Of a stretch of DNA of 32,000 nt, positions 3,543-30,579 are shown in pieces (the stretch's first letter is position 1; each line of letters begins with the position of its first letter). Both the position numbers and the translations under genes were made by a program. The notes under the pieces were generated by a model. That model ran no database searches. It was not told where the DNA came from and saw only the letters and a list, made by a program, of their open reading frames with translations. Origin of the DNA: Microcystis aeruginosa NIES-843 (GTDB lineage: Bacteria; Cyanobacteriota; Cyanobacteriia; Cyanobacteriales; Microcystaceae); assembly GCF_000010625.1 (NCBI RefSeq), contig NC_010296.1, positions 1,530,001 through 1,562,000 on the forward strand, read 5' to 3'.

Positions 3543-4784
3543 ATGACACAGTTAGAGATTTTAGAAGAAATAGAAGCGGTGGATTTTGCGGAAGAAGAAG
3601 AAGATATTGAAGGAGAATCAGCAAACCAAAAAAAGCTACAACTCAAAGAAATCTCCGAGACTGTTGTTGCCAGCAGTGATTGGACTACCGCAACGATCCG
3701 CGATCAATTAATTCGAGAAAATATTCAACTCAATCCGCGCTTTCAAAGACGAGATGCTTGGAATATTACTCGTAAAAGTCGATTTATTGAATCCCTAATT
3801 CTAGGGTTTCCAGTCCCACAGATTGTCTTAGCTACTAATAATAAGGAAAAAGGGAAATTTATCGTTCTTGATGGCAAACAACGCCTACTAACAATTTTAC
3901 AGTTTTATGGTGACAGTGCCACACCTAATAATAGTTTTACTTTAAAAGATTTAGAATTTCTAGATAATCTCAATGGCTGCCAATATCAAGATCTAAAAAA
4001 TGACTTCAATTTGAATGATATCTTAGACCAACTGGATAATCAAACTATCCGCACGATTGTTATCCGTAATTGGAAAACGGAGAGTTTCCTCCATAAAATT
4101 TTTCTGCGTCTCAATGTGGAAAATACCCCTTTGTCTTCTCAAGAATTAAGACAAGCATTACACCCAGGAGGTTTTATTAATTTTTTAGATGATCGAGCGA
4201 TCGAAAGTCAAGCATTAAAGAAAATATTTAAATCTTCCTATCCCGATTTCCGGATGCGCGACACTGATATATTATTGCGTTATGTAGCTTTTCATTATTA
4301 TTTATCTGATTATCGCGGTGATGTTCAGATGCTTCTAGATAAAACCTGTCAAAATTTCAATCAAGAATGGGAAAAACGCTCAGATGAAATTATCAATGTT
4401 GTTGATCAATTTGAAAAAGCTGTCCAGACAACGATTAATATTTTTGGAGAGAAAAACTTTTCCCGTCTCTGGCTGCCTGAATCGGCAACTTATCGAAGTC
4501 AGTTCAATCGAGCAATTTTAGATGTGATGGTTTTTTACTTTTGCGATGATCTAATTAGAGCAGCTGCCGAGAAAAACAAAGAACAGGTAGAAGAAGCATT
4601 TAAAAGTTTATTTCTTACTGCCGTTGATCGATTTAAAAATGCTGTATTAATTAGTACAAATACTAAACAATCAACCTATGATCGTTTTCATTTATGGGGT
4701 CAAGCTTTATCAGAAGTATTAGATATTAACTTCAATATTCCTCAGATGGAAGACAATCGTATTATTTTTAAGGGGTTAAGATAG
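3543..4784 (+). CDS. DUF262 (ParB/Srx-fold NTPase-like, GmrSD N-terminal type) domain protein with a helical C-terminal region; no recognisable DUF1524/HNH nuclease domain
   Basis: Motifs NPRFQRRDAWNITRKSRFIESLILGFPVPQIVL and VLDGKQRLLTI (the DGxQR signature of DUF262). I prefer ATG 3543, which has a GAGGAGA 12 nt upstream, over the track's TTG 3507, which overlaps the guaA terminator. The gene is AT-rich relative to guaA. Confidence 0.75.
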   Translation: MTQLEILEEIEAVDFAEEEEDIEGESANQKKLQLKEISETVVASSDWTTATIRDQLIRENIQLNPRFQRRDAWNITRKSRFIESLILGFPVPQIVLATNNKEKGKFIVLDGKQRLLTILQFYGDSATPNNSFTLKDLEFLDNLNGCQYQDLKNDFNLNDILDQLDNQTIRTIVIRNWKTESFLHKIFLRLNVENTPLSSQELRQALHPGGFINFLDDRAIESQALKKIFKSSYPDFRMRDTDILLRYVAFHYYLSDYRGDVQMLLDKTCQNFNQEWEKRSDEIINVVDQFEKAVQTTINIFGEKNFSRLWLPESATYRSQFNRAILDVMVFYFCDDLIRAAAEKNKEQVEEAFKSLFLTAVDRFKNAVLISTNTKQSTYDRFHLWGQALSEVLDINFNIPQMEDNRIIFKGLR

Positions 4785-4797
4785 TTGTTTTTTTACT

Positions 4798-5436
4798 ATG
4801 CCGAAATCTCTAAGATTTAGACAACTAACCAAAGAATTAAATCGACTCAAAAAACAATTCCTACCTCGTAAATTCAGCGAGATAAATGACTATTCTGAAA
4901 GACAATTAGCTTTAACTTTTGCCTATCGAGTTTTTGCTCATGCTGAGATTGAATCTTATCTTGAAGATCGAGTTTGGGATACCGTACAGACAGCAAAAAA
5001 TATCTGGGATAATCAAGGTAAAGCTGGTCGAGTTTTGTTATGTGTAATCGCTTTTTCTGGTCAAGAAATGGAAAATCCTCCCGATACCATTACTCCTCTT
5101 AAAGGTAACAAAAATGTCTCCCTAGACAAACTGAAAATAACTAAAAAAATTGACATAGCGATTAGATGTTTTAAATCAGTTATCGATCAAAATCATGGGA
5201 TTAAAGAAACTAACCTATTAAAATTACTCTTACCAATCGGCATCGATAGTGATGAATTAGATCAAGTTTGGTTACTAAATATGGATACTTTTGGAGAATA
5301 ACGCGGTGAAATCGCTCATTCTTCGGCAAGAAAAACGAAACAACCGCCTAACCCTGCCGACGAATTAGAAAGAGTTAAACAAATTATTCAAGAATTAGAG
5401 AAAGTCGATCAATTGATTACTAACTTGCTCAAGTAA
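4798..5436 (+). pseudogene. HEPN-like (Rx4H) protein gene interrupted by an in-frame TAA at 5299-5301; paralogue of the intact gene at 11669-12748
   Basis: ORF 4798-5301 ends ...NMDTFGE*. The same frame then continues RGEIAHSSARKTKQPPNPADELERVKQIIQELEKVDQLITNLLK* to 5436. RGEIAH (5302-5319) is an Rx4H motif. ETNLLKLLLPIGIDSDE...RGEIAHS parallels KDQLTRLLVDAGISATD...LRNNSAHG in the other copy. Confidence 0.65.
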
Positions 5437-5459
5437 TTGCACTCTTAATAAAACTTAAA

Positions 5460-5489
5460 TTGTTAATTATATCAGAAATACAGTATAAT
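5460..5489 (+). promoter_or_regulatory. Possible sigma70-type promoter for the methyltransferase gene
   Basis: TTGTTA (5460-5465), an 18-nt spacer, then TATAAT (5484-5489), about 33 nt upstream of GTG 5522. Sequence pattern only. Confidence 0.25.
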
Positions 5490-5521
5490 AAAAGGCAGAC
5501 AATAGAGAGCTAATCATCAAA

Positions 5522-6784
5522 GTGAAACATAGACCAATTGCGATCGATTTATTTGCCGGCTGCGGTGGGATGTCCCTTGGTCTAGAAGCGGCGGGATTTG
5601 ATATTGCTGTAGCGGTGGAGTTTGATGCAGTCCATTCCTTGGTTCATCATTTTAACTTTCCCTATTGTCAAACTATTTGCCGGGATATAGCCAAAGTAAC
5701 AAGTAGAGAAATATTGGAATTATTAAAACTAAAAGGCTATGCCACCGATGTTAGTTTAATTGCTGGTGGTCCCCCCTGCCAAGGTTTTTCATTGATTGGT
5801 AAACGACAAATAGATGATCCTAGAAATTCTCTTGTATTTGAATATCTGCGGATTGTAGCAGAAATTAAACCCAAGTATTTTATCTTTGAAAATGTCCCCG
5901 GCATGGCTACGGGTAAACATAAACAATTTTTAGAGGAGTTAATCTCTGAATTTGAAGCTATTGGCTATACAATTAATCAGCCAATTAAAATCCTCGATGC
6001 CAGTGAATATGGCGCACCACAAAAGCGCAGAAGATTAATCTTAATTGGTAGTCGAAAAGACGTGACGATGGCTAAATATCCCTTAGCCAAGACCGTCGAT
6101 TTGAACTCAGCCAAAAAATCAGCTTTTACCAGCGTCTATGATGCGATTTCAGATTTAGAATTAATACCTGCCTTTATCGATACTGATTTAGGCATACCTG
6201 CATCAAAATTAGATTATAGTGGTAAGAGGAAAAAATATTCAGTGCAGCCAGGGGATATTTTTAAACTTTGCCATCAAAGAACAGTAGATACAAAAATCTA
6301 TGGACATATAGGCTCAGTTCATACCCAAAGATCAATTGATAGATTTATCATAACCGAACCGGGTACAGTGGAACCAAAAAGTCGCTTTTTCAAGCTTTCT
6401 CCTACTGGTTTATGTAATACTCTCCGGGCCGGAACTAATAGTGACAAAGGGGCCTATACTGCTCCTAGACCCATTCACTATTCTATTCCTCGTTGTCTTA
6501 CTGTACGAGAAGCCGCCAGATTACATACATTCCCCGATTGGTTTCAGTTTCACCGCACAATATGGCATGGTTTTCGTGAGATTGGTAATGCAGTTATTCC
6601 GCTATTATCGAAAGAACTTGGCTCTTCTGTGATGGGAGCAATGAATATCAATACCGCTAATCTCAACCGAGTTATTTTAGAAAAAATGCCAGCCGAATTA
6701 TTGCTATATAATATGTCTCAAGCATCAAATTATTGGGGAATCTCTGACGATGTTATCCCGAAAAGAAAACGAGGTGTATCTTAG
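5522..6784 (+). CDS. DNA (cytosine-5)-methyltransferase
   Basis: All diagnostic m5C-MTase motifs are present in order: DLFAGCGGMSLG (I), GGPPCQGFS (IV), FIFENVPGM (VI), QKRRRLILIG (VIII), TVREAARLHTFPDWFQF (IX) and GNAVIPLL (X). GTG start. Confidence 0.9.
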   Translation: MKHRPIAIDLFAGCGGMSLGLEAAGFDIAVAVEFDAVHSLVHHFNFPYCQTICRDIAKVTSREILELLKLKGYATDVSLIAGGPPCQGFSLIGKRQIDDPRNSLVFEYLRIVAEIKPKYFIFENVPGMATGKHKQFLEELISEFEAIGYTINQPIKILDASEYGAPQKRRRLILIGSRKDVTMAKYPLAKTVDLNSAKKSAFTSVYDAISDLELIPAFIDTDLGIPASKLDYSGKRKKYSVQPGDIFKLCHQRTVDTKIYGHIGSVHTQRSIDRFIITEPGTVEPKSRFFKLSPTGLCNTLRAGTNSDKGAYTAPRPIHYSIPRCLTVREAARLHTFPDWFQFHRTIWHGFREIGNAVIPLLSKELGSSVMGAMNINTANLNRVILEKMPAELLLYNMSQASNYWGISDDVIPKRKRGVS

Positions 6785-11074: not shown

Positions 11075-11234
11075 AATTAACCATATCTGCCATTACTTTT
11101 GAAAAATGCTATCAGTATCGTCCCCTTTCCAACCCCGAAAAATAGCTATAGACGCTCTGTCATCTTGGCAAGTCATGGGCCATCGCTCGCCACTTGATTC
11201 CGTTGGCCGATAGATAGGGTTTGCTGAAAAAGTA

Positions 11235-11299
11235 GGGGCGAAGCATTCGGATAGAAAATCTCCGGTTTCAGCGATAGGTTATGCCAAATGCTTCGCCCC
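11235..11299. repeat. Hairpin repeat (13-bp perfect stem), MITE-like
   Basis: ggggcgaagcatt (11235-11247) pairs with aatgcttcgcccc (11287-11299). Confidence 0.6.
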
Positions 11300-11668
11300 G
11301 ACAGGACGCGATCGCCGCTCAAGATGCCAGGTTTTTGAGCCACTAGCTGGAAAATCTTGCAGCTGCTTGGCCAAACAGTCCCCCAAACCCCTTACCTCGT
11401 CTATATTTCACATTTATTCAGCCAACCCTAAATAAAAAATGGCTGTGAGCTCATAGCTACTTCAGGGTAGCACATCTTAAGGAGCCTTGACAAAATGAAC
11501 TTTATGTGAGTTGCTTACCCAGAGAGCGATTCAGGCATATTTGAGGAGAATTTGCCATCTCAATTGTTAATAGCGTTTGAGATGCGCTCACCTTGGGTTG
11601 GGGGGTGGGGAGACGATGCCAAATCTGGTTATAATTCACATTTACCAGAAACGCTATATTCATTTCAA

Positions 11669-12748
11669 TCATTCCGAAATAACTAAATAAACTTCTAATC
11701 CTTTTTGACTTTCTTTGTCAAATTTTAAGCCTATTTCAGAATCTTTTATCTCTCTTATTGGAATTCTTCGGCGAGGGGTATTTTTGCCATTTTTATTAAT
11801 TTGAATACTTTCAATAATAGCATTTTGACATATTTTTTTATTTTCACTGACTAAAAAAACTTTTTTACCAACTTCTAGTCTTTTATTGGGTTCCTGTGGC
11901 TCATCTGATATTTTGATAGCGCAAGCTTGTTGCTGTTGATACCAATTGACAACTTTACCGATCTTTTGAAGCTTTCCTATCTTTTTCTTCCTATCAACAA
12001 AGCAATAAAGAACTAATTCACTCATAGCTTGACATATAGCTTCGACAAAATCACATAATTGTAGTAACTCATTGGCATTAAGAACGGTATCTATTTCTTT
12101 ACCATGAGCAGAATTATTACGAAGTTCTATAAAATTCTTTAATTCATTTTCCACACTACCCCTACTATTATTGTCAATAAAATTCTTAACTTTTTTATGA
12201 TTTTCTATCCATTGCCAAGAATCAGTTGCAGATATGCCAGCATCGACTAAAAGTCTGGTTAATTGATCTTTTCTCAGATTAGCTTCATGTAACAAAAAAG
12301 CAGCTGATGTGAGATTATATTTAGTTGTATTTTTGTATTCAGTATCAAATAAATTTTTGATAATGTCCCTCTCTGAAAGAGAATCGAAGCGATTTCTTTT
12401 ATTTTCATTGCCCAGTAATGTAGCACAACCAGTCTGATGCTTATTTCTTACAGATTCAGGTAAATCTTGATAGCAACTATATAATTGAGGCAGCAAAATA
12501 ATCCAATCTCCCACTAGATTTTCGACAAAATTTTCGTAAAGAGCATATAACCTTGTGATAGATGAACAATGATCGTTAACTAGCCACTTGTCTCCTAAAG
12601 GAGCATTTGCTTGAAGATATTTTAAGTCTTCTGTGTTGAGTTGTGAAGGATTATCCGCAATAATTTCTCTAAGTTTTTCACTGATATTAATTATTGATCG
12701 AATGGTCTTTATCTCATCCTTTAGGTTATTTAAAAGTCCTTCAAACAT
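11669..12748 (-). CDS. HEPN-like (Rx4H) predicted RNase with a C-terminal beta-barrel-like extension
   Basis: FIELRNNSAHGKE contains the Rx4H motif (nt 12104-12121). The motif context is homologous to the interrupted gene at 4798-5436. ATG 12748 lies 2 nt after the upstream gene's TGA; the track's TTG 12754 would overlap it. Very AT-rich. Confidence 0.7.
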   Translation of the reverse strand: MFEGLLNNLKDEIKTIRSIINISEKLREIIADNPSQLNTEDLKYLQANAPLGDKWLVNDHCSSITRLYALYENFVENLVGDWIILLPQLYSCYQDLPESVRNKHQTGCATLLGNENKRNRFDSLSERDIIKNLFDTEYKNTTKYNLTSAAFLLHEANLRKDQLTRLLVDAGISATDSWQWIENHKKVKNFIDNNSRGSVENELKNFIELRNNSAHGKEIDTVLNANELLQLCDFVEAICQAMSELVLYCFVDRKKKIGKLQKIGKVVNWYQQQQACAIKISDEPQEPNKRLEVGKKVFLVSENKKICQNAIIESIQINKNGKNTPRRRIPIREIKDSEIGLKFDKESQKGLEVYLVISE

Positions 12749-12750
12749 TC

Positions 12751-13962
12751 TCAAATACTCTGCTTAAGAACTCGTTGAATCAGAGAATCAAAAATTTGAA
12801 TACGAGCTTTAAAATCATCTTTGGTATCCCCTTCTCCGGTGAAAAGTCCTTTTTTTAATTTTTTATCTTGATGAGTAATTCCCTGGGAATCTTGAGTAAA
12901 TAAGCTGATAGTTTCATCAATTATCGCTGATTTTCTAGTAATTAATTCTTGATAATCAGATAAATGGTTACTGAAACTAATCATCACCGCATCATAGTAA
13001 ACTTTATAAGCTTTCGATTTATGTGTTTTGGTTTTACTATCGAAAGGCTTAAATAACTGATCCTGATAAATGTTAGATACTAACTCTATAGTTTGGTTAA
13101 ATACTTGCTCGAACTCTTGGATATTCTCGTCGGAAAAATTAAGACTTTTTTTCATCATATAATTATCCAGATATTTAGATAAATTACCAGTATATTGATC
13201 AATATCCCTCAGGGCAAAAAAACGGAGGATTAATTCTACATCTTCCATCTTTTTATAAAATCCATTTTCTTTAAGTTCTTCTTTATCATCAATAGGAATA
13301 TCCCAAGCTTTAGCAAAAATAGTATTCTCAGAAAGCTTTAATAAAAGTTCATTGAATTTCCCAGAGTAAATACAGTTTCTTATTTCTTGGCGACTCAAAG
13401 ATACACCTCCTGTATTGAGGCGTTCAAAAACCAGTTGTTTTAAAGATAAAGCTTCCTCTGTATTCGATAGAGACTCGGTAATAACAACTATAGTTGAAAT
13501 GGCGCGTCGATTGATACCATCTTTGATTTTTGCAGGAAGACTTTCATAGGTTCTTCCTTCTAATTCAGGCCAGATATCTAACCCTGTTAATTTTAATTTG
13601 TTATTATAAAAATTCTCAATTGCTGTGATTCTTTGTTGACCATCCATTACTTCATAGGAGTTATAGGAAGTTTCATAGAGAATCAGAGGAGGTACGGGAA
13701 TATTCATCAAAAAAGATTCAATTAGTCTCGATTGTTTTTGTGCGTCCCAGCGATCCCGTCTCTGATAGAAAGGACGCTTTTTCACATAGTTAGGTTTATT
13801 TAAAGACTCAGCAAAACTAGGCAACTTTTCTCGATTCATTTCTAATAATATTCTTCGTTCACCTTGTTCATATTTTTCATTAATTTCATTATCTGATAAT
13901 TTTTTAACATCCTTTCGGGAACGTTTTTGCCAAGGATTTGTTTTAGTTTGTGAGATTGTCAT
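12751..13962 (-). CDS. DUF262 (ParB/Srx-fold NTPase-like) domain protein, paralogue of 3543-4784
   Basis: RPFYQRRDRWDAQKQSRLIESFLMNIPVPPLIL and VMDGQQRITAI. I prefer ATG 13962, which has a GGTGGGA Shine-Dalgarno-like sequence upstream; ATG 14010 is the alternative. No DUF1524/HNH-type motif is visible in the C-terminal half. Confidence 0.75.
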   Translation of the reverse strand: MTISQTKTNPWQKRSRKDVKKLSDNEINEKYEQGERRILLEMNREKLPSFAESLNKPNYVKKRPFYQRRDRWDAQKQSRLIESFLMNIPVPPLILYETSYNSYEVMDGQQRITAIENFYNNKLKLTGLDIWPELEGRTYESLPAKIKDGINRRAISTIVVITESLSNTEEALSLKQLVFERLNTGGVSLSRQEIRNCIYSGKFNELLLKLSENTIFAKAWDIPIDDKEELKENGFYKKMEDVELILRFFALRDIDQYTGNLSKYLDNYMMKKSLNFSDENIQEFEQVFNQTIELVSNIYQDQLFKPFDSKTKTHKSKAYKVYYDAVMISFSNHLSDYQELITRKSAIIDETISLFTQDSQGITHQDKKLKKGLFTGEGDTKDDFKARIQIFDSLIQRVLKQSI

Positions 13963-14102
13963 AATTTCCCACCAGAGGCGTACAAATTGAGATGACCGGA
14001 CTTCCCTCATTCATTTTTAAGCATAGACTGAGGATATATACGAGAATTAAGAGTTATTGGTAATCTTCCCAGATAACTCTCAAAAGTTAATTCTCTTCAA
14101 TT

Positions 14103-14139
14103 GGCAACTGGTCACTGATAACTGTTAACTGGTAACTGA
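14103..14139. repeat. STRR-type tandem heptamers (5 units)
   Basis: aactggt cactgat aactgtt aactggt aactgat, immediately downstream of the sir stop. Confidence 0.7.
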
Positions 14140-16077
14140 TTAGGATTTTTGGCTGAAATAGGCCTCTAGCGCCTCATTGATGATTTGATTCATCGGCCGT
14201 TTTTCCGTTTCCGAAGCTTCCTTGAGACGGACAAACATATCATCGGGGACGCTGACACGGTTTTGATTTTTACGCACGCGTTTGGGTTTTGATTCAGTGG
14301 TAGTAGTTTCGGTCATTTTAGGTGTGTAGGTGGCTGAAAATGCTTGTAAAGCAGGGAAATTGACTCGATGACAGAATTCTCCGAAGGTTTCGTTATTTTG
14401 TTGATCCTGTTGGAAGTAAACGAAAATCGGTTCTAAGACCTTTTCTAGATCATCGATCGCCATTTTATCCAAATAGGGGCGCGCTAGTCGAGTTTGATCG
14501 GCTGTTCCCCCCAACCAGAGTTGGTAGGAATTGGGAGCGCTACCCACAAATCCTAATTCTGCCATATAGGGACGCGCGCAGCCATTGGGACATCCTGTCA
14601 TGCGGATGACAAATTGCTCTTTGCTTAATCCTAAGCGATTAAGCAGGGCGCGAATGCGTTCAATCACCTGGGGTAAAATTCTTTCCGACTCAGTAATCGC
14701 TAATCCACAGGTGGGCCAAGCGGGACAGGCCATGGCATAACGGGTTAAAGGGTCAATTTCGGCGGGATCGGTGATAATTCCGTGTTCTTTCAGGATCGCC
14801 TCGATCGCTTGTTGATCCTGGGGTTCGATTTCGTAGAGAATGATATTATGGTTAGCCGTCAAGCGCATGGGCAACTGAAAACGCTCGATAATCACTTTTA
14901 AGGCGGTTTTTAGCTGAAAACTGCCTTCATTTTTGACCCGGCCATTCTCCACAGAAAGACCAAAAAATAATTTTCCGTCTCCCTGTTCATTCCATCCCAA
15001 AAAGTCTTGATATTCCCAATCGGGGAGGGGTTGGTAGGGGGCAATTTTTTGGCCGAAATAACCCTCAACAGTGCTGCGGAATTTCTCTACTCCCCATTCT
15101 TCGAGGATATATTTCATTCTCGCATGACGACGATCGCCGCGATCACCGTAATCCCTTTGGGTTGCCACGATCGCTTTTACCAGATCGTACACCTCTTCTT
15201 TGTCCACATAACCGATCGGATCGGCCATTCTGGGGAAAGTTTCCTCCTTATTGTGGGTTCTTCCCAGTCCACCCCCCGCAAGGACGTTAAAACCCTGTAA
15301 TTGACCGTTTGCGTCGGTAATCACCACCAAACCGATGTCATTGGTGTAGATATCGATGGAGTTGTCTCCCGGCACGGTGACACCCATCTTGAACTTACGG
15401 GGCATATAATGTTGACCGTAGATCGGTTCGATGGGATCGTTTTTGTTAATCCCATTTGTATCTTTTTGTCTCGCAGCCTTGACTTCTGGCGCTTCTTCTG
15501 CACTGATAACTTTTTCGCCATCGAGCCAAATTTCGTAGTAGGCTCCAGTTTGGGGAGTGAGCAAATCGGCGATATTATTGGCATATTCCCAAGCATAGCC
15601 GTATTCGGGGCGATTTTTGTAGGGGGCTGGCGGTGCGGTGACATTGCGGTTAACATCACCACAGGCCGCTAAAGTGGATCCCATACTGCGGATAATTTCC
15701 CCGAGGGTGGCTTTGAGATTTTTCTTTAAAATGCCGTGCAATTGGAAGCCTTGGCGGGTTGTCACCCGTAAAGTGCCGTTACCGTAGCGATCGGACAAAC
15801 TATCGAGGGTAAGATATAGTTGCGCGGGAATAAAACCCCCCGGACTGCGGGTACGCAACATCATTTGATAGTCTTTTTCTTGACCTTTGGCTCTATTGTC
15901 GCGATTATCCTGTTGATAGGAACCGTGAAACTTGAGGATCTGCACCGCCGCATCGGTAAAATGGGTTGTATCTTCGAGGAGTTCACTGGCCAAAGGTTCT
16001 CGTAGATAATTACTGCGTTCTTTGATACCTTCGACTTTAGAAACCTTGGCGGTAGGAGAAATAGGAGTTGTAACCAT
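14140..16077 (-). CDS. sir: Assimilatory sulfite reductase (ferredoxin)
   Basis: The N-terminus [17 protein letters not shown]...[14 protein letters not shown] matches plant/cyanobacterial SiR. The siroheme/4Fe-4S cysteine clusters are [11 protein letters not shown] and [11 protein letters not shown]. 645 aa, including a C-terminal tail described in the findings. Confidence 0.92.
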
Positions 16078-24352: not shown

Positions 24353-24582
24353 GATGTAATTGGGCTAACCTACTTCCCAATTGTGTTAGCATCAGAGATA
24401 AGTATAAAACAGCCGAACGATTAAAGCGGGACTATTGGCTCTATATGGTGTTTAACTGTGGGACAATGTCGGAAGTTTATGTCATTCGAGATGCGGTTAC
24501 GCTAGGACGGCAACCTGTTACAAGCATTGAACATTATCAGCTTGGACTAGAGGCAATTCTCCAGCAGGATGAACGGGAATGA
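24353..24582 (+). pseudogene. C-terminal remnant of a DUF3883-type (restriction-endonuclease-like tail of helicase-family defence proteins) gene
   Basis: ...SIRDKYKTAERLKRDYWLYMVFNCGTMSEVYVIRD resembles the DUF3883 C-terminal signature (..A..LgdrYWLYVV.n....p.l..i.dP). Everything upstream is replaced by the MITE. The stop overlaps the next gene's ATG (ATGA at 24579-24582). Confidence 0.45.
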
Positions 24583-26567
24583 AGATCAGCAAAATTCAGA
24601 TTAAAAATTTTAAGTCTTTTCAAGATGTTACCGTAGATTTAGAGCCTGATTTTAATGTCTTTACTGGGGTTAATAATTCAGGAAAAACCAATTTGCTAGA
24701 GGCGATCGCCCTTTGGCATGAGTGTTTTAATAAGCTAATTCGGCAAGCGGGCAAAGGATATAAAGAGTTATACAAAAAAGGTGATTATATTCTCGGTCAT
24801 ACAACAGAAAAATATTTTCCTTACGAAACTATTAAAACGGTTAGAACTTCAAATATTGACGATATTTTTTATCAACGTGATACAACTGCTCCTATTGAAT
24901 TATCTATTACCTTAAACAAAGTAGATAGAAATTTATTAAACAAAGTAGATATAAATTTAGAAATTGGTTTTTCTATCAAGACCTCTGGTTTAAATTATGT
25001 TATCGAGCTTTTGAATTATAGCCAATATAACTTTAGAGGATTCAATGAGTTTTTTGAAAATTTTCCCAACCCTATTAGTGCATCTTTTGCTTCTCCTGTA
25101 GCCACCATCAGAACTGAGGAGAGATTTGTGACTCGTCCACAAATTATTGAATCTATTCAAAAAAGAGAGTCTGTTGAAGTTGTTCGTAATCGTTTATACA
25201 ATCTTTATTATGATACAACTCGAAATGAAAATCTTTACAATAAATTTATTCGAGATTTATCATATATTCTCTTTAACGGCGATAAAAAAATTGAGTTTTT
25301 CCCTAAAAGTGATATCAAAAAAGATATAAAATCAGTGATTGATTATAAAATTGAGTCACAAGACATTGAGAAAGATATTTCTCTATTGGGAAGTGGAACG
25401 TTACAAATTATTCTTATTTTATTGAATCTTTACGCGCCAGAAAAAACTAGAGACCTAAACTTAATTTTATTTGATGAGCCTGATAGTCATATTCATCGGG
25501 ATATTCAAAAACGTTTAATTGATACGGTTCTTAGATTTTCGACAAATACTCAAATCTTTTTAACAACTCATAATGAGACTCTAATTCGTCAGGTTCCTCT
25601 GTATCAGCTTTTTCATATTGAAAACAGACCCAACTATTACTATACTTCTGTGGTTAAAGATGAACAGAGTTTAGATGTTGGCTATCGTTTTAAAGGAATT
25701 TATCCCTCTAGTCTAAATCCGATTATTAGTTCTTTGGGTAATAGTAATGGTTTGGACGTTATCAATGCTATTGAGGCAGATCATATTTTATTTGTGGAAG
25801 GTCAGGATGATGCAAAAGCAATTTATACATTGTTACAAAAAATGACTTTAGGGGTAAATACCAAAAAATATGTCTTTTGGGTGATAGGTGGAGTCTCTCA
25901 AATTTTTAAGGATTTACCTAGTTATAAGACAGTTTTTCAGCAAATTAAGAATCAAGAAACGCTTTGGAGTAAGGCTTTTCTCGTCTTTGATCGTGATTTT
26001 ATTGAAGATGATCACCGTGATAAGCTTATTGAAGCACTGGGTAGTCATTTTAAAATTCTAACTTATATCACTCCGTCTTATACTTTTGAGTCAATTTTAT
26101 TAATGGATTTGATCAAGTTATCTCATCTACTAAAAAAATGGCTAGAAGCCAAAAAAGATGATATTAATATTGATCGATCTGCTTTGGTACAATCCCTAGA
26201 GAATCATTATTTAACAATTATGCAAGAAAAGCTAGAGAGTCTTGATGATAAATATATTGATGAGACTTGCCATCGGTATGCCAACGTCAGGGAACAACTA
26301 AGTAAAAGGGATTTTTTGAATAACCAAAATCCTATTAGAGAAAAGGATATTAGTCTAAATACTCTATTTAGGAGGTATTTAAAAACTATCAATGACAATC
26401 GTGAATTTTATAAAATGGCTAATAAAAATGATGTTCAAGCAATTATCAATCAAGTGACCAAACCTTATAATATAGAGTTCAATATTGAGCAAGATTTTAT
26501 TTCATTACTCAATCTTGTTGATCGCTCGACTTGGTTTAATGAGTGGGATTTTTTAACCAAATTGTAA
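24579..26567 (+). CDS. OLD-family-like protein: N-terminal ABC/AAA_15-type ATPase plus a C-terminal Toprim/DUF4435-like domain
   Basis: MKISKIQIKNFKSFQD...FTGVNNSGKTNLLEAI (Walker A), LILFDEPDSHIH (Walker B), FLTTHNETLI (H-loop). The C-terminal part has ILFVEGQDDAKAI, VIGGVSQ and FLVFDRDF (an E...GG...DxD Toprim-like pattern). Very AT-rich. Confidence 0.7.
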   Translation: MKISKIQIKNFKSFQDVTVDLEPDFNVFTGVNNSGKTNLLEAIALWHECFNKLIRQAGKGYKELYKKGDYILGHTTEKYFPYETIKTVRTSNIDDIFYQRDTTAPIELSITLNKVDRNLLNKVDINLEIGFSIKTSGLNYVIELLNYSQYNFRGFNEFFENFPNPISASFASPVATIRTEERFVTRPQIIESIQKRESVEVVRNRLYNLYYDTTRNENLYNKFIRDLSYILFNGDKKIEFFPKSDIKKDIKSVIDYKIESQDIEKDISLLGSGTLQIILILLNLYAPEKTRDLNLILFDEPDSHIHRDIQKRLIDTVLRFSTNTQIFLTTHNETLIRQVPLYQLFHIENRPNYYYTSVVKDEQSLDVGYRFKGIYPSSLNPIISSLGNSNGLDVINAIEADHILFVEGQDDAKAIYTLLQKMTLGVNTKKYVFWVIGGVSQIFKDLPSYKTVFQQIKNQETLWSKAFLVFDRDFIEDDHRDKLIEALGSHFKILTYITPSYTFESILLMDLIKLSHLLKKWLEAKKDDINIDRSALVQSLENHYLTIMQEKLESLDDKYIDETCHRYANVREQLSKRDFLNNQNPIREKDISLNTLFRRYLKTINDNREFYKMANKNDVQAIINQVTKPYNIEFNIEQDFISLLNLVDRSTWFNEWDFLTKL

Positions 26568-28506: not shown

Positions 28507-30579
28507 TTAGTCGATAACTTGATAAATAAACTGGAAACCTGACCAAGTTCCCAGATCAAAGGCGTATTCATCAATTACACTGCCAGAACTATCCATTTTT
28601 AGACCTAAATCTAATTTTAGATCGCTCCAGAAAGCTCTGGCTATTTCTAGGGGGTTAGTCAGGGTGAGCAGTGGGGTGGCTTCTCCCTTGAGGCTTTGAG
28701 TGGCATTGAGAAGGGTCAAGGTTTTCGGGAAAGGATGGCGACTGAGGATCAGTATATTCTCTCTGATGCCCTTGGGTTGACTAATTTTCCAATGCCCTTG
28801 GCGGTCATTGGGGATGGTGGCCTTGGTTTTGGCCGCCACGACAAAGGGGGCTAATGGGCTGGAATTGCTGAAATTATCGGGGTTTTCTGAACGGGAACAG
28901 TATAAAAGCGGTTGGCGATCGCTGTTGAGGACAAGGATCAGTGCGTAGAGGGGTTGTTCTTCTTGATTCTCGATTTGATAGCGAATTTCCGTACCGACGG
29001 GCAGAATTAAGTCGTTTTTAGCGGTATTAGTCCCCCTGCTACCCGCAATTTTTTGAGTTGGCACCGTGGAGATATAGGTTTGATCGAGGCTTTCCAGGGT
29101 GACGATGACGGCTAAACCGGAGGATTCTTGATTGATCAACAAGTGCCACAATTTGCAGGCCAGCAGGGTTTCTAGTTGCGATTGCAGTCGTTTGATTCCC
29201 GATTTAATTGCTTCGTTGGCTGCCCCTAAACTACCGATAATTAGGGAGCCATTGGGAGATAATAACTGATAATTGCCAGTTTCTTCGCCACCAACTCGAC
29301 TTAAGAGACAATCTACCGTTTGTTCGCCAATGTTAACCACGGCGGCCACATCGGGCAAACTGGCAAAGGTACTGGTGGCATCTACCCGTTCAATTCGGGT
29401 TAAGTTATGATCCAAACCGACGATTAAGCCGATTTTACTCGGAAAAACCCGCAATTTTTCCTCTAGAATCTGTCCTATTTCTAGGGAGGCGGTTGGTGAT
29501 AATAACTGGGCTTTGGCTTTTAAACCCTGACGGGAGAGAATTTGTAGGCTGATTTCCTCCCCGGTCGCCTCAATAAAGCTCAAACAGGAGTTAATTCCGT
29601 AATTTTCCAGGATTTCTAAGGGCAGGCCGACCAGATTGACTTCTAGGGTGCGCTCATCAATAAGATTTGTAACAATTGCCGCCCCAACCCTTGACTTTTC
29701 TGACGTTGTATGATATAGCGGCACAGAATTATTTTGATTATTGGTCAGGATTGCCGGTTGCTGTTGTTGACTGCTGTGACTAGCGACGAGATTACGGAGA
29801 TGGGGAAAAGCGATCGCAATTGTCGGACTGGGGGAAACTTGCCAGAGATACTGAGTGAGATCATAGGTGAATAAGCCAGCATTGGGGCTATTACCGCTCA
29901 ATTCCAGGGCGATTTGCTCTGGTTTAGCGGCAGCGAGAATAACGCCGTTACTAGGCTTATTTTTGAGGTTAAAACGGGTTTTAATATCGGCAGCGAAAGT
30001 TAATTCGGCGGGGTTAGGATCAGTAATGGTTCTAGAATAGGAACGAATGCGGAGATTACCGAGATAGGGCTGAGGTTGGGGGAGATGACTACTATCAAAA
30101 ATCAAGCTAAACTTATCCGTAGCTAGACAGCGAGCCATCAGCAGGATATTTTCCTTGATTAAAGCATTTTCTGCCCCATCAGCAGTAATAAAAACCTCTT
30201 TTCCGGCCCCAAGACTGCCATAACCGCTAAAGTGAAAAATTACCACATCCCCCAACCTGGCTTGGGCGATCAGGTGTTCTAAAAAAGCCGCTTCGATCGC
30301 TTCTCGACTGGCTTGTTGTCCCGTTAAAGTTACTATATCAGCATCCTGAAAGCCAAAACGATAACGGAGAAGGTCTTTTTGTAACTCCACATCGGTAAGA
30401 CAGCCGGGCAGCGGCGGAATATTCGCCCCATACTGGTCAATACCGACTAAAAGAGCCAATTTTCGGGGATTAGGGGTGGCGAGAGCGGCCAAATGACGGT
30501 TAAGGGTCCCTTGACTAATCGCCAAAGTCAGCAACCCCCAACCTGTCTGCTGGATCAATTCTCGCCTAGTTATGTTCAT
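28507..30579 (-). CDS. Caspase-fold (C14, orthocaspase-type) protein with both catalytic-dyad residues substituted (pseudo-orthocaspase); Tat-type signal
   Basis: N-terminal MNITRRELIQQTGWGLLTLA (twin-arginine signal). p20-like region KLALLVGIDQY...VVIFHFSGYGS...SLIFDSSHLP aligns to caspase xYFSGHG / DxCHSG with His->Tyr and Cys->Ser. Confidence 0.8.
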   Translation of the reverse strand: MNITRRELIQQTGWGLLTLAISQGTLNRHLAALATPNPRKLALLVGIDQYGANIPPLPGCLTDVELQKDLLRYRFGFQDADIVTLTGQQASREAIEAAFLEHLIAQARLGDVVIFHFSGYGSLGAGKEVFITADGAENALIKENILLMARCLATDKFSLIFDSSHLPQPQPYLGNLRIRSYSRTITDPNPAELTFAADIKTRFNLKNKPSNGVILAAAKPEQIALELSGNSPNAGLFTYDLTQYLWQVSPSPTIAIAFPHLRNLVASHSSQQQQPAILTNNQNNSVPLYHTTSEKSRVGAAIVTNLIDERTLEVNLVGLPLEILENYGINSCLSFIEATGEEISLQILSRQGLKAKAQLLSPTASLEIGQILEEKLRVFPSKIGLIVGLDHNLTRIERVDATSTFASLPDVAAVVNIGEQTVDCLLSRVGGEETGNYQLLSPNGSLIIGSLGAANEAIKSGIKRLQSQLETLLACKLWHLLINQESSGLAVIVTLESLDQTYISTVPTQKIAGSRGTNTAKNDLILPVGTEIRYQIENQEEQPLYALILVLNSDRQPLLYCSRSENPDNFSNSSPLAPFVVAAKTKATIPNDRQGHWKISQPKGIRENILILSRHPFPKTLTLLNATQSLKGEATPLLTLTNPLEIARAFWSDLKLDLGLKMDSSGSVIDEYAFDLGTWSGFQFIYQVID

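Follow-up and report, generated by a model that had tools for sequence, protein, structure and literature searches.

A mobile DUF262-HEPN gene pair of Microcystis aeruginosa NIES-843 as a probable two-gene anti-phage module of the PD-T4-2 type

Known DUF262 and HEPN systems

In GmrSD, BrxU and SspE, the DUF262 domain is an NTPase that senses DNA modification, and cleavage is carried out by a DUF1524 domain (PMC12065111). PD-T4-2, Menshen and Dazbog are DUF262 systems that lack DUF1524 and are largely uncharacterised (PMC12065111). This paper concerns a low-GC cassette in a 32,000-nucleotide (nt) stretch of the genome of Microcystis aeruginosa NIES-843 (the window, to whose positions all coordinates refer), which encodes a DUF262 protein, here called P1, followed by a HEPN protein, P2. 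We interpret the pair as an anti-phage module of the PD-T4-2 type, self-contained in its two genes and horizontally mobile, a reading to which we assign a probability of about 0.7.

For PD-T4-2 of Escherichia coli ECOR65, the accessible text and Tables S1-S3 of Vassallo et al. 2022 (PMC9519451) list the content as 'DUF262, HEPN' and report that the system was selected on phage T4, that it protected strain K-12 against T4, and that its deletion in ECOR65 restored T4 plaquing. The best HHpred families given there for the second protein, PD-T4-2B, are PF18735 (97.8%) and PF18737 (96.9%). The mechanism of PD-T4-2 is unknown (PMC12065111). A first-pass annotation of the window had put the Microcystis pair forward as an uncharacterised defence candidate and stated that no experimental characterisation was known. 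The defence part of that proposal gains support from the homology to the validated PD-T4-2; the statement on characterisation does not hold, since protection against T4 by a system of the same architecture was demonstrated in 2022.

The operonic link of HEPN genes to ParB-like genes was tabulated by Anantharaman et al. 2013, who named the RiboL-PSP/MAE_28990 HEPN families from Microcystis proteins (PMC3710099, accessible part); the first-pass annotation had referred correctly to this survey, its Microcystis-named family and the ParB-like neighbours. DARNA/PD-T7-3, ApeA, HepS and PrrC are single-chain HEPN anticodon nucleases with an Rx4H motif and a C-domain that senses nucleic acid; they remain inactive until they meet a phage-derived nucleic-acid cue and act by abortive infection (bioRxiv 10.64898/2026.02.22.705581). 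The DUF262-HEPN architecture is thus not new, having been described as PD-T4-2 in 2022 and as a ParB-HEPN operon link in 2013. The present locus adds an effector of the long type whose barrel resembles that of translation factors, two-gene synteny that is strict across cyanobacteria, and, in Microcystis, a swappable slot.

The two genes and their products

Both genes are on the (-) strand. The features of the pair are as follows.

12751-14010, (-) strand: maximal open reading frame (ORF) of P1, 419 amino acids (aa)
12751-13962, (-) strand: P1, a ParB-like DUF262 NTPase with a C-terminal helical region of the NsnA-C/'ParBDB' type, predicted sensor (Pfam, PADLOC, starts of homologues)
13747-13764, (-) strand: DUF262 motif I, QRRDRW, corresponding to QRxxxW (translation; definition from PMC12065111)
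13630-13644, (-) strand: DUF262 motif II, DGQQR, predicted NTP-binding centre (translation)
13414-13428, (-) strand: DUF262 motif III, FERLN, corresponding to FxxxN (translation)
12749-12753, (-) strand: gene junction consisting of the P1 TGA, 2 nt and the P2 ATG (sequence)
11669-12754, (-) strand: second maximal ORF, which bears P2 (ORF list)
11669-12748, (-) strand: P2, predicted 359-aa HEPN RNase-type effector of the long subtype (Pfam, AlphaFold2 model, synteny)
12104-12121, (-) strand: predicted HEPN catalytic motif RNNSAH, R210-x4-H215 (translation)
11681-11971, (-) strand: C-terminal beta-barrel of P2, resembling EF-Tu domain II and the U32-peptidase C-domain (domain-only AlphaFold2 model, Foldseek)

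The two ORFs are intact, co-directional and spaced by 2 nt. At the junction the sequence is ...att TGA ga ATG ttt gaa..., with the TGA at 12753-12751 and the ATG at 12748, as the first-pass annotation had it. The tight coupling which that annotation described is seen both in the 2-nt spacer and in related loci, where the gap between the two genes is -4 to +6 nt in 71 of 76 cases, and the pair is probably co-translated. Of the extent given earlier for the pair, the ORFs and the start of P2 hold and the start of P1 at 14010 probably does not. Because homologues of P1 are 389-403 aa long and align from M17, P1 likely begins at the ATG at 13962, which would give a protein of 403 aa. Homologues of P2 open with MFxxLL, which identifies the ATG at 12748 as the real start of the 359-aa protein.

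P1 matches the Pfam family GmrSD_N/DUF262 over aa 77-215 with 92.7 bits (cut-off 33.2; E 4e-26). This profile match bears out the DUF262 assignment made at first pass, as does the rest of the Pfam scan for the reported lack of a DUF1524/His-Me nuclease: GmrSD_N was the sole match, and no DUF1524, HNH or other recognisable nuclease domain was found in P1. Among the PADLOC models, P1 matches NsnA (E 1.3e-63; aa 66-416 on profile positions 56-384 of 385) and PD-T4-2_A (E 4.5e-44; aa 74-406 on positions 50-360 of 363), and otherwise only REase_II, weakly (E 3e-9). This homology to a validated system, seen in the matches to PD-T4-2_A and NsnA, lends support to a defence role. All three DUF262 motifs are conserved in an alignment of 17 cyanobacterial sequences (A2), in which Q67, R68, R69 and W72 of motif I, D107-R111 (DGQQR), and F179, R181 and N183 of FERLN are invariant. 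The 419-aa form of P1 is the representative of a 318-member cluster at 90% identity. A PDB sequence search with the P1 family profile gave no match.

P2 exceeds the thresholds of two Pfam HEPN families, HEPN_RiboL-PSP (65 bits, cut-off 28.4, E 1e-17) and HEPN_MAE_28990 (54.9 bits, cut-off 26.8, E 2e-14), and its RNNSAH motif agrees with the HEPN (Rx4H) assignment proposed earlier. R210, N211 and H215 are invariant in 23 aligned sequences. In the AlphaFold2 (AF2) model of P2 (pLDDT 86.9), aa 1-256 are all-helical and aa 260-356 form a beta domain. The 359-aa form represents a 303-member cluster at 90% identity, and a PDB sequence search with the P2 family profile found no relative. With about 350 aa as against about 165 aa for PD-T4-2B, P2 belongs to a long subtype of partner HEPN. 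When the HEPN core of P2 was compared with a profile of six short partner HEPNs, one of which matches the PADLOC model PD-T4-2_B, hhalign gave a probability of 88% (E 3e-6), and with this moderate support the core seems to share ancestry with the short HEPNs encoded in DUF262 pairs on plasmids. Single-sequence hhalign comparisons of the long HEPN profile with one short HEPN, or with the 167-aa ORF of a second module in the window (see below), were uninformative.

Conservation and decay of the pair

The neighbourhood of P1 was surveyed by scanning one genome per species with the P1 alignment, which gave 80 loci at 48-99% identity. Nearly all are cyanobacterial; the others are in metagenome-assembled genomes (MAGs) assigned to Psychroflexus and Tatlockia, in a Bradyrhizobium genome, and in one unclassified bacterial MAG. 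A P2 homologue lies immediately downstream of P1 in 76 of the 76 loci with downstream sequence (hidden Markov model E 1e-32 to 4e-168), so that the synteny on which the earlier annotation had staked the pairing holds, and a pair that recurs in every testable locus is not a chance pattern. Clustering of the flanking ORFs of 81 loci gave no conserved third gene, be it a methylase, an antitoxin or an ATPase, and the next commonest neighbour family occurs in 11 of the 81. The two genes are therefore always adjacent where this can be checked, with no sign that a third gene is required. There are 63 full-length P2 partners, and all except L036 and L073 carry the motif RN[DENK][AS]AH (61/63).

P2 is the faster-evolving member of the pair. 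Its median identity to the window protein is 39%, compared with 56% for P1, and P1 has the higher value in 59 of 59 loci; the barrel, at 34%, is the most divergent part of P2. P2 is also the member more often broken: it is truncated in 13 of 76 loci and P1 in 4 of 78, two of which have a broken P2 as well, an asymmetry to which assembly errors in MAGs may contribute. A bias of truncation towards P2 is what would be expected if P2 is the toxic partner.

Comparison with described systems

The comparison with PD-T4-2 is based on PADLOC models and the published HHpred table. Like PD-T4-2, the cassette is a two-gene operon in which DUF262 comes first and HEPN second; P1 is matched by the PD-T4-2_A profile over nearly the full model; P2 and PD-T4-2B share their top Pfam families in the same order (HEPN_RiboL-PSP, then HEPN_MAE_28990); neither system has a DUF1524 domain; and both are found in a mobile, accessory context. 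The two systems also differ. PD-T4-2B is about 165 aa long (both ORFs fit within 1540 bp), whereas P2 has 359 aa, with a longer HEPN region and an additional C-terminal beta-barrel, and is not detected by the PD-T4-2_B model. In P1, about 60 aa near the N terminus form a conserved segment to which A subunits of the short type do not align, and the host of the cassette is a cyanobacterium.

Menshen (NsnABC; Millman 2022; Bell et al. NAR 2025, PMC12065111) resembles the cassette in that P1 has the architecture of NsnA, a ParB-DUF262 domain followed by a helical ParBDB-type C-domain, and in that the predicted effectors of both are RNases. However, neither an NsnB ABC ATPase (AAA_15 + DUF3696) nor an NsnC inPIN effector is present in or beside the cassette. 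The sole conserved partner of P1 is the HEPN protein, and the ORFs beyond the HEPN gene are unrelated. The sensor would therefore act on its effector without an ATPase transducer. Membership of Menshen was rejected, although NsnA is the best PADLOC match, as NsnB and NsnC are missing and no ATPase family recurs in the 81 loci. P1 shares with GmrSD, BrxU and SspE the N-terminal DUF262 domain (QRxxxW, DGxQR, FxxxN) and the helical middle domain that follows it, but lacks the DUF1524 His-Me nuclease, and the effector of the cassette is a separate polypeptide of RNase rather than DNase type. A single-chain restriction system of the GmrSD type was likewise rejected, since there is no DUF1524.

P2 falls in the same HEPN families as the RiboL-PSP/MAE_28990 ParB operons of the 2013 survey, but the cassette has neither a methyltransferase nor an L-PSP fusion. 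The C-terminal barrel goes unmentioned in the accessible part of that paper (PMC3710099), where the only beta-rich domain defined, MAE_18760-NTD1, is N-terminal. The single-chain nucleases DARNA/PD-T7-3, ApeA, HepS and PrrC follow the same logic as is proposed here for the cassette, with the difference that the proposed sensor of the cassette is a separate DUF262 NTPase; the sequence relationship seen between them and P2 is that of the HEPN superfamily.

The C-terminal barrel and the N-terminal segment of P1

The C-terminal ~100 aa of P2 were modelled separately with AF2 (pLDDT 89.2). In a Foldseek search of the PDB, the barrel matches the C-domain of U32 peptidases (4he5/4he6; target TM-score, TMt, 0.77/0.71), and further matches are domain II of eIF5B/IF2, EF2/EF-G, EF-Tu/EF1A, BipA and Snu114. 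Nearly all of the first ~47 matches share one fold class (query TM-score, TMq, 0.43-0.63). The Pfam scan assigned no domain to the barrel in P2 itself. A barrel profile (A3) retrieves 476 cluster representatives among 1.84 billion proteins. In the matches listed, the barrel is mostly located at about residues 250-350 of proteins of 330-410 aa; the remaining listed matches are mainly shorter and probably partial gene products. All seven of the barrel-bearing 330-410-aa proteins that were scanned are RiboL-PSP/MAE_28990 HEPNs.

Two further proteins extend the distribution of the barrel. P0284 (L108, 319-1263), which has a TIR domain, contains two copies and P0285 contains three; the A3 profile detects both at about 4e-7, and in Pfam both score as GTP_EFTU_D2 with 33-37 bits (cut-off 30.3). 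On the strength of the models and these matches, the barrel probably belongs to the fold class of EF-Tu domain II and the U32 C-domain, and it is, as judged from domain content, used by at least two types of effector, HEPN and TIR. Defence effectors may share the barrel as an adaptor or as a module for targeting. In P2, it may serve to bring the protein to tRNA or the ribosome, or else for docking to the N-terminal segment of P1.

That segment, at aa ~20-63 of P1 (window ~13774-13905), is strongly conserved, with an invariant RILxEMNREKLPSF...Y. It is present in the A subunits of long-type pairs, and short-type A subunits do not align to it, so that matches begin at residue 21-27 of the P1 query for long-type partners and at 40-66 for short-type ones. 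The P2 barrel may have its counterpart in this segment; since relatedness confounds the correlation, it is no more than a lead.

Relatives on plasmids, an integron and a phage

DUF262-HEPN pairs are common on plasmids outside the cyanobacteria. A tblastn search with P1 gave matches in 751 plasmid records, 517 of them from Escherichia, a number that is an upper bound on pairs as it includes Menshen-type and other DUF262 genes. One Acinetobacter plasmid has the true Menshen layout. Short partners (164-261 aa) occur on plasmids of E. coli, Klebsiella, Bradyrhizobium, Arthrobacter and Burkholderia. One plasmid from E. coli, 3.9 kb in size, holds little beyond the pair, and pairs are also found on conjugative plasmids. 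The long partners among the mobile-element examples inspected have 355-377 aa. On plasmid pS19502 of Shewanella baltica (L085, 1479-5262), a long-type pair adjoins an integron integrase and appears to be carried as an integron cassette. A Tabrizicola plasmid has a long partner next to a methyltransferase, and a Nostoc plasmid has one that is frameshifted.

A search of GenBank phages with P1 found prophage copies. Vibrio phage 10N.286.55.A5_PE003 (PQ189364.1; L109, 2932-5204), a P2/186-like temperate phage, encodes a DUF262 protein of 402 aa and a RiboL-PSP HEPN of 355 aa that overlap by 4 nt. This HEPN aligns end-to-end with the profile of the Microcystis effector (hhalign 99.3%, E 1e-20). The pair lies directly downstream of the CI repressor gene, and a site beside the CI repressor of a prophage is a typical position for a defence moron. 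No relative was confirmed among the IMG/VR viral contigs, which were scanned with patterns from the P2 profile.

A swappable slot next to sir

The surroundings of the pair were compared by blastn of the window against Microcystis contigs encoding an identical Sir protein. The features that bear on the borders of the cassette are as follows.

11596-14129, (-) strand: whole swappable cassette, comprising a 5' region, P1 and P2 (homology breaks against other Microcystis, blastn); GC 0.322
14106-14140, no strand: heptanucleotide tandem array of 5 copies, situated at the sir-proximal cassette boundary (Tandem Repeats Finder, TRF)
11217-11428, no strand: 212-bp insertion resembling a miniature inverted-repeat transposable element (MITE), just outside the cassette and not part of the module (strain comparison)

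Across these contigs, the slot between sir and a DUF6679 gene is found in three states. In the first, it holds the intact DUF262-HEPN pair. In the second, represented by L086 and L089, a 134-bp insertion inside the P2 gene cuts P2 to 158 aa; the insertion is at 10729-10863 of L086, equivalent to window ~12349-12358, in contigs that are otherwise 99.7% identical. Judged by their gene content, L086 and L089 are predicted to be natural effector knock-outs in which P1 is intact. Other broken copies of P2 in related Microcystis appear as gene calls of 218-299 aa. In the third state, L087 (AP024565.1, 8949-13482) and L088 (JXYX01000013) hold a different cargo of 4.5 kb, which encodes a 626-aa protein with a weak TPR match, a 126-aa nSTAND6/PifA-like fragment, three hypothetical proteins and a DDE transposase. 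Homology of the window to L087 and L088 ends at 14130 and returns at 11595, and the cassette therefore measures 2.53 kb. The interval between sir and the DUF6679 gene is a variable hotspot.

The composition of the cassette points the same way. Its GC content of 0.322 contrasts with 0.475 for sir and 0.416 for the window (32% against 47% in the flanks), in agreement with the AT-richness claimed at first pass. The exchange of cargo in strains with identical Sir, together with the low GC, supports an accessory, horizontally acquired character of the pair. The bordering repeats reported in the same annotation are also present. The 7-nt tandem array lies directly behind the sir stop (TRF: period 7, 5.0 copies, score 42), and the homology break at 14130 falls inside it. 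The 212-bp element, of which the window has one copy, possesses 12-nt terminal inverted repeats (GGGTTTGCTGAA...TTCAGCCAACCC) and a predicted fold energy of -72 kcal/mol, and is missing from L086, L087 and L006. There is in addition an inverted repeat at 11232-11250/11284-11302.

Proposed mechanism and alternative explanations

The mechanism of the pair can be approached by analogy, with GmrSD, BrxU and SspE as guides for P1 and the HEPN defence RNases (DARNA, ApeA, HepS and PrrC) as guides for P2. By these analogies we infer that a DNA-state sensor is coupled to an RNA-targeting suicide output, at this locus and in PD-T4-2 alike. P1 would scan DNA and recognise a state specific to phage DNA, and binding or hydrolysis of NTP by P1 would then alter its hold on P2, releasing or activating a P2 dimer. 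The active HEPN dimer would cut RNA of the translation apparatus (tRNA, rRNA or mRNA). Translation would stop, and the phage would fail through growth arrest or abortive infection. It is conceivable, if rather doubtful, that the long subtype represents a distinct wiring of such a system, in which the barrel serves as a reusable adaptor, found on TIR effectors too, that docks P2 to P1, at the N-terminal segment of the latter, or places the HEPN active site at aminoacyl-tRNA or the ribosome. If that wiring were true, a DNA-sensing NTPase would directly license an RNase specific for the translation apparatus without the ATPase transducer of Menshen.

Several results weigh against the anti-phage reading or parts of it. 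Phage resistance has been shown for PD-T4-2 of E. coli ECOR65 only and for no pair of the long subtype, and the accessible text on PD-T4-2 does not state whether it acts by abortive infection or direct immunity (PMC9519451). P1 scores higher on the Menshen model NsnA than on PD-T4-2_A. All HEPN-paired DUF262 proteins that were scanned have the same order of scores, and since it is common to every DUF262 partner of a HEPN gene the order is not diagnostic. Even at E<=1, PD-T4-2_B gives no match to P2. This PADLOC model is narrow: of four plasmid partner HEPNs scanned, two short and two long, it was reached by one, a short protein from E. coli (4e-4). No solved HEPN structure was among the 50 Foldseek matches listed for the full P2 model, which come almost entirely through the barrel, and every Foldseek match of the barrel has an E value of 2.6e-3 or weaker, that is, E>1e-3. 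Finally, a promoter and terminator scan of the locus gave no signal above shuffled controls.

An alternative possibility, which we consider unlikely, is that the pair is a toxin-antitoxin or addiction module that stabilises mobile elements or islands without specific sensing of phage, with P2 as an RNase whose toxicity is constitutive and P1 as the protein antitoxin to it. The tight coupling of the genes and the occurrence of pairs on conjugative plasmids, as an integron cassette and on very small plasmids such as the 3.9-kb one of E. coli would fit such a module, as would the loss of P2 far more often than P1, which is expected where loss of the antitoxin is lethal. The gene order, however, is atypical for a type II system, with a large 'antitoxin' of 400 aa in first position that has conserved NTPase motifs. 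In GmrSD, BrxU and SspE the DUF262 domain senses the state of DNA, and toxin-antitoxin and abortive-infection roles are not mutually exclusive. PD-T4-2, which has the same architecture, natively lowers T4 plaquing according to the accessible text (PMC9519451).

We regard it as quite unlikely that the pair is a DNA-targeting system akin to type IV restriction, in which P1 as a ParB-fold nuclease would nick or cleave modified phage DNA and the HEPN protein would be an accessory, a back-up toxin or a regulator. The accessible part of the 2013 survey does term such partners 'ParB nuclease' and places HEPN genes in restriction-modification contexts (PMC3710099), P1 has its weak match to REase_II, and DNA methyltransferases adjoin some relatives as well as the second module of the window. 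Against this, P1 has no nuclease domain recognisable by Pfam, in characterised DUF262 proteins it is DUF1524 that cleaves, no methyltransferase is conserved with the cassette, and the Rx4H motif, invariant in the 23 homologues and kept in 61 of 63 full-length partners, points to a catalytic effector, not an accessory. It is very improbable that the cassette of NIES-843 is a silent or decaying remnant whose ORFs look intact but which is unexpressed or non-functional. The broken P2 copies of related Microcystis, the in-frame stop ahead of the Rx4H motif in the neighbouring second module and the lack of a promoter-like signal beyond chance are consistent with decay, but in cyanobacteria little weight attaches to a scan for the sigma-70 consensus, neither ORF is shortened or lacks a predicted catalytic motif, and the P1 and P2 forms found here represent clusters of 318 and 303 members.

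A PD-T4-2-type anti-phage module thus remains the preferred reading. Systems of this type are validated but mechanistically blank, as the control of a separate RNase by a DUF262 NTPase is unexplained. The cyanobacterial long subtype offers handles on that problem in its clean two-gene synteny, in an additional effector domain suggestive of the translation apparatus, and in the natural effector knock-outs of sister strains. Because the PD-T4-2_B model misses P2, surveys of defence systems in bloom-forming cyanobacteria would overlook the system if they depend on that model. If the pair works as proposed, it would link the sensing of DNA state to the shut-off of translation in the simplest possible form.

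Other defence-like genes in the window

A second, paralogous DUF262 module is located 7 kb from the cassette at 3543-6784 on the (+) strand, in a low-GC island (GC 0.345). It consists of three genes.

3543-4784, (+) strand: second DUF262 protein, 27% identical to P1 (GmrSD_N E 1e-22, NsnA E 4e-66)
4798-5301, (+) strand: 167-aa HEPN-like ORF (HEPN_RiboL-PSP below threshold, E 0.006)
5522-6784, (+) strand: C-5 cytosine methylase (Dcm), third gene of the module

An in-frame TAA (5299-5301) ends the 167-aa ORF. The Rx4H motif RGEIAH follows it directly, in a frame that runs on to 5436. Each of the five contigs that have an identical second DUF262 protein and span the downstream ORF shares the 167-aa gene call. 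From its gene content, the second module looks like a short-type DUF262-HEPN-methylase system with an effector cut just before the catalytic motif. Its methylase-linked layout resembles that of PD-lambda-5 ('ParB/HEPN, methyltransferase').

A third low-GC island (GC 0.306), at 24579-26567 on the (+) strand, encodes a 662-aa AAA_15/OLD-type ABC ATPase. Its PADLOC matches to AriA, AbiLi, NsnB, PtuA and GajA (E 3e-25 to 1e-15) suggest that it is probably another defence gene. At the edge of the window, a 162-aa ORF (18-506, (+) strand) contains a Cas12f1-like TNB zinc-ribbon domain of the TnpB type (E 1e-12), and a 690-aa protein with a caspase domain (Peptidase_C14) is encoded at 28507-30579 on the (-) strand and matches the PADLOC 'caspase' model (E 7e-13).

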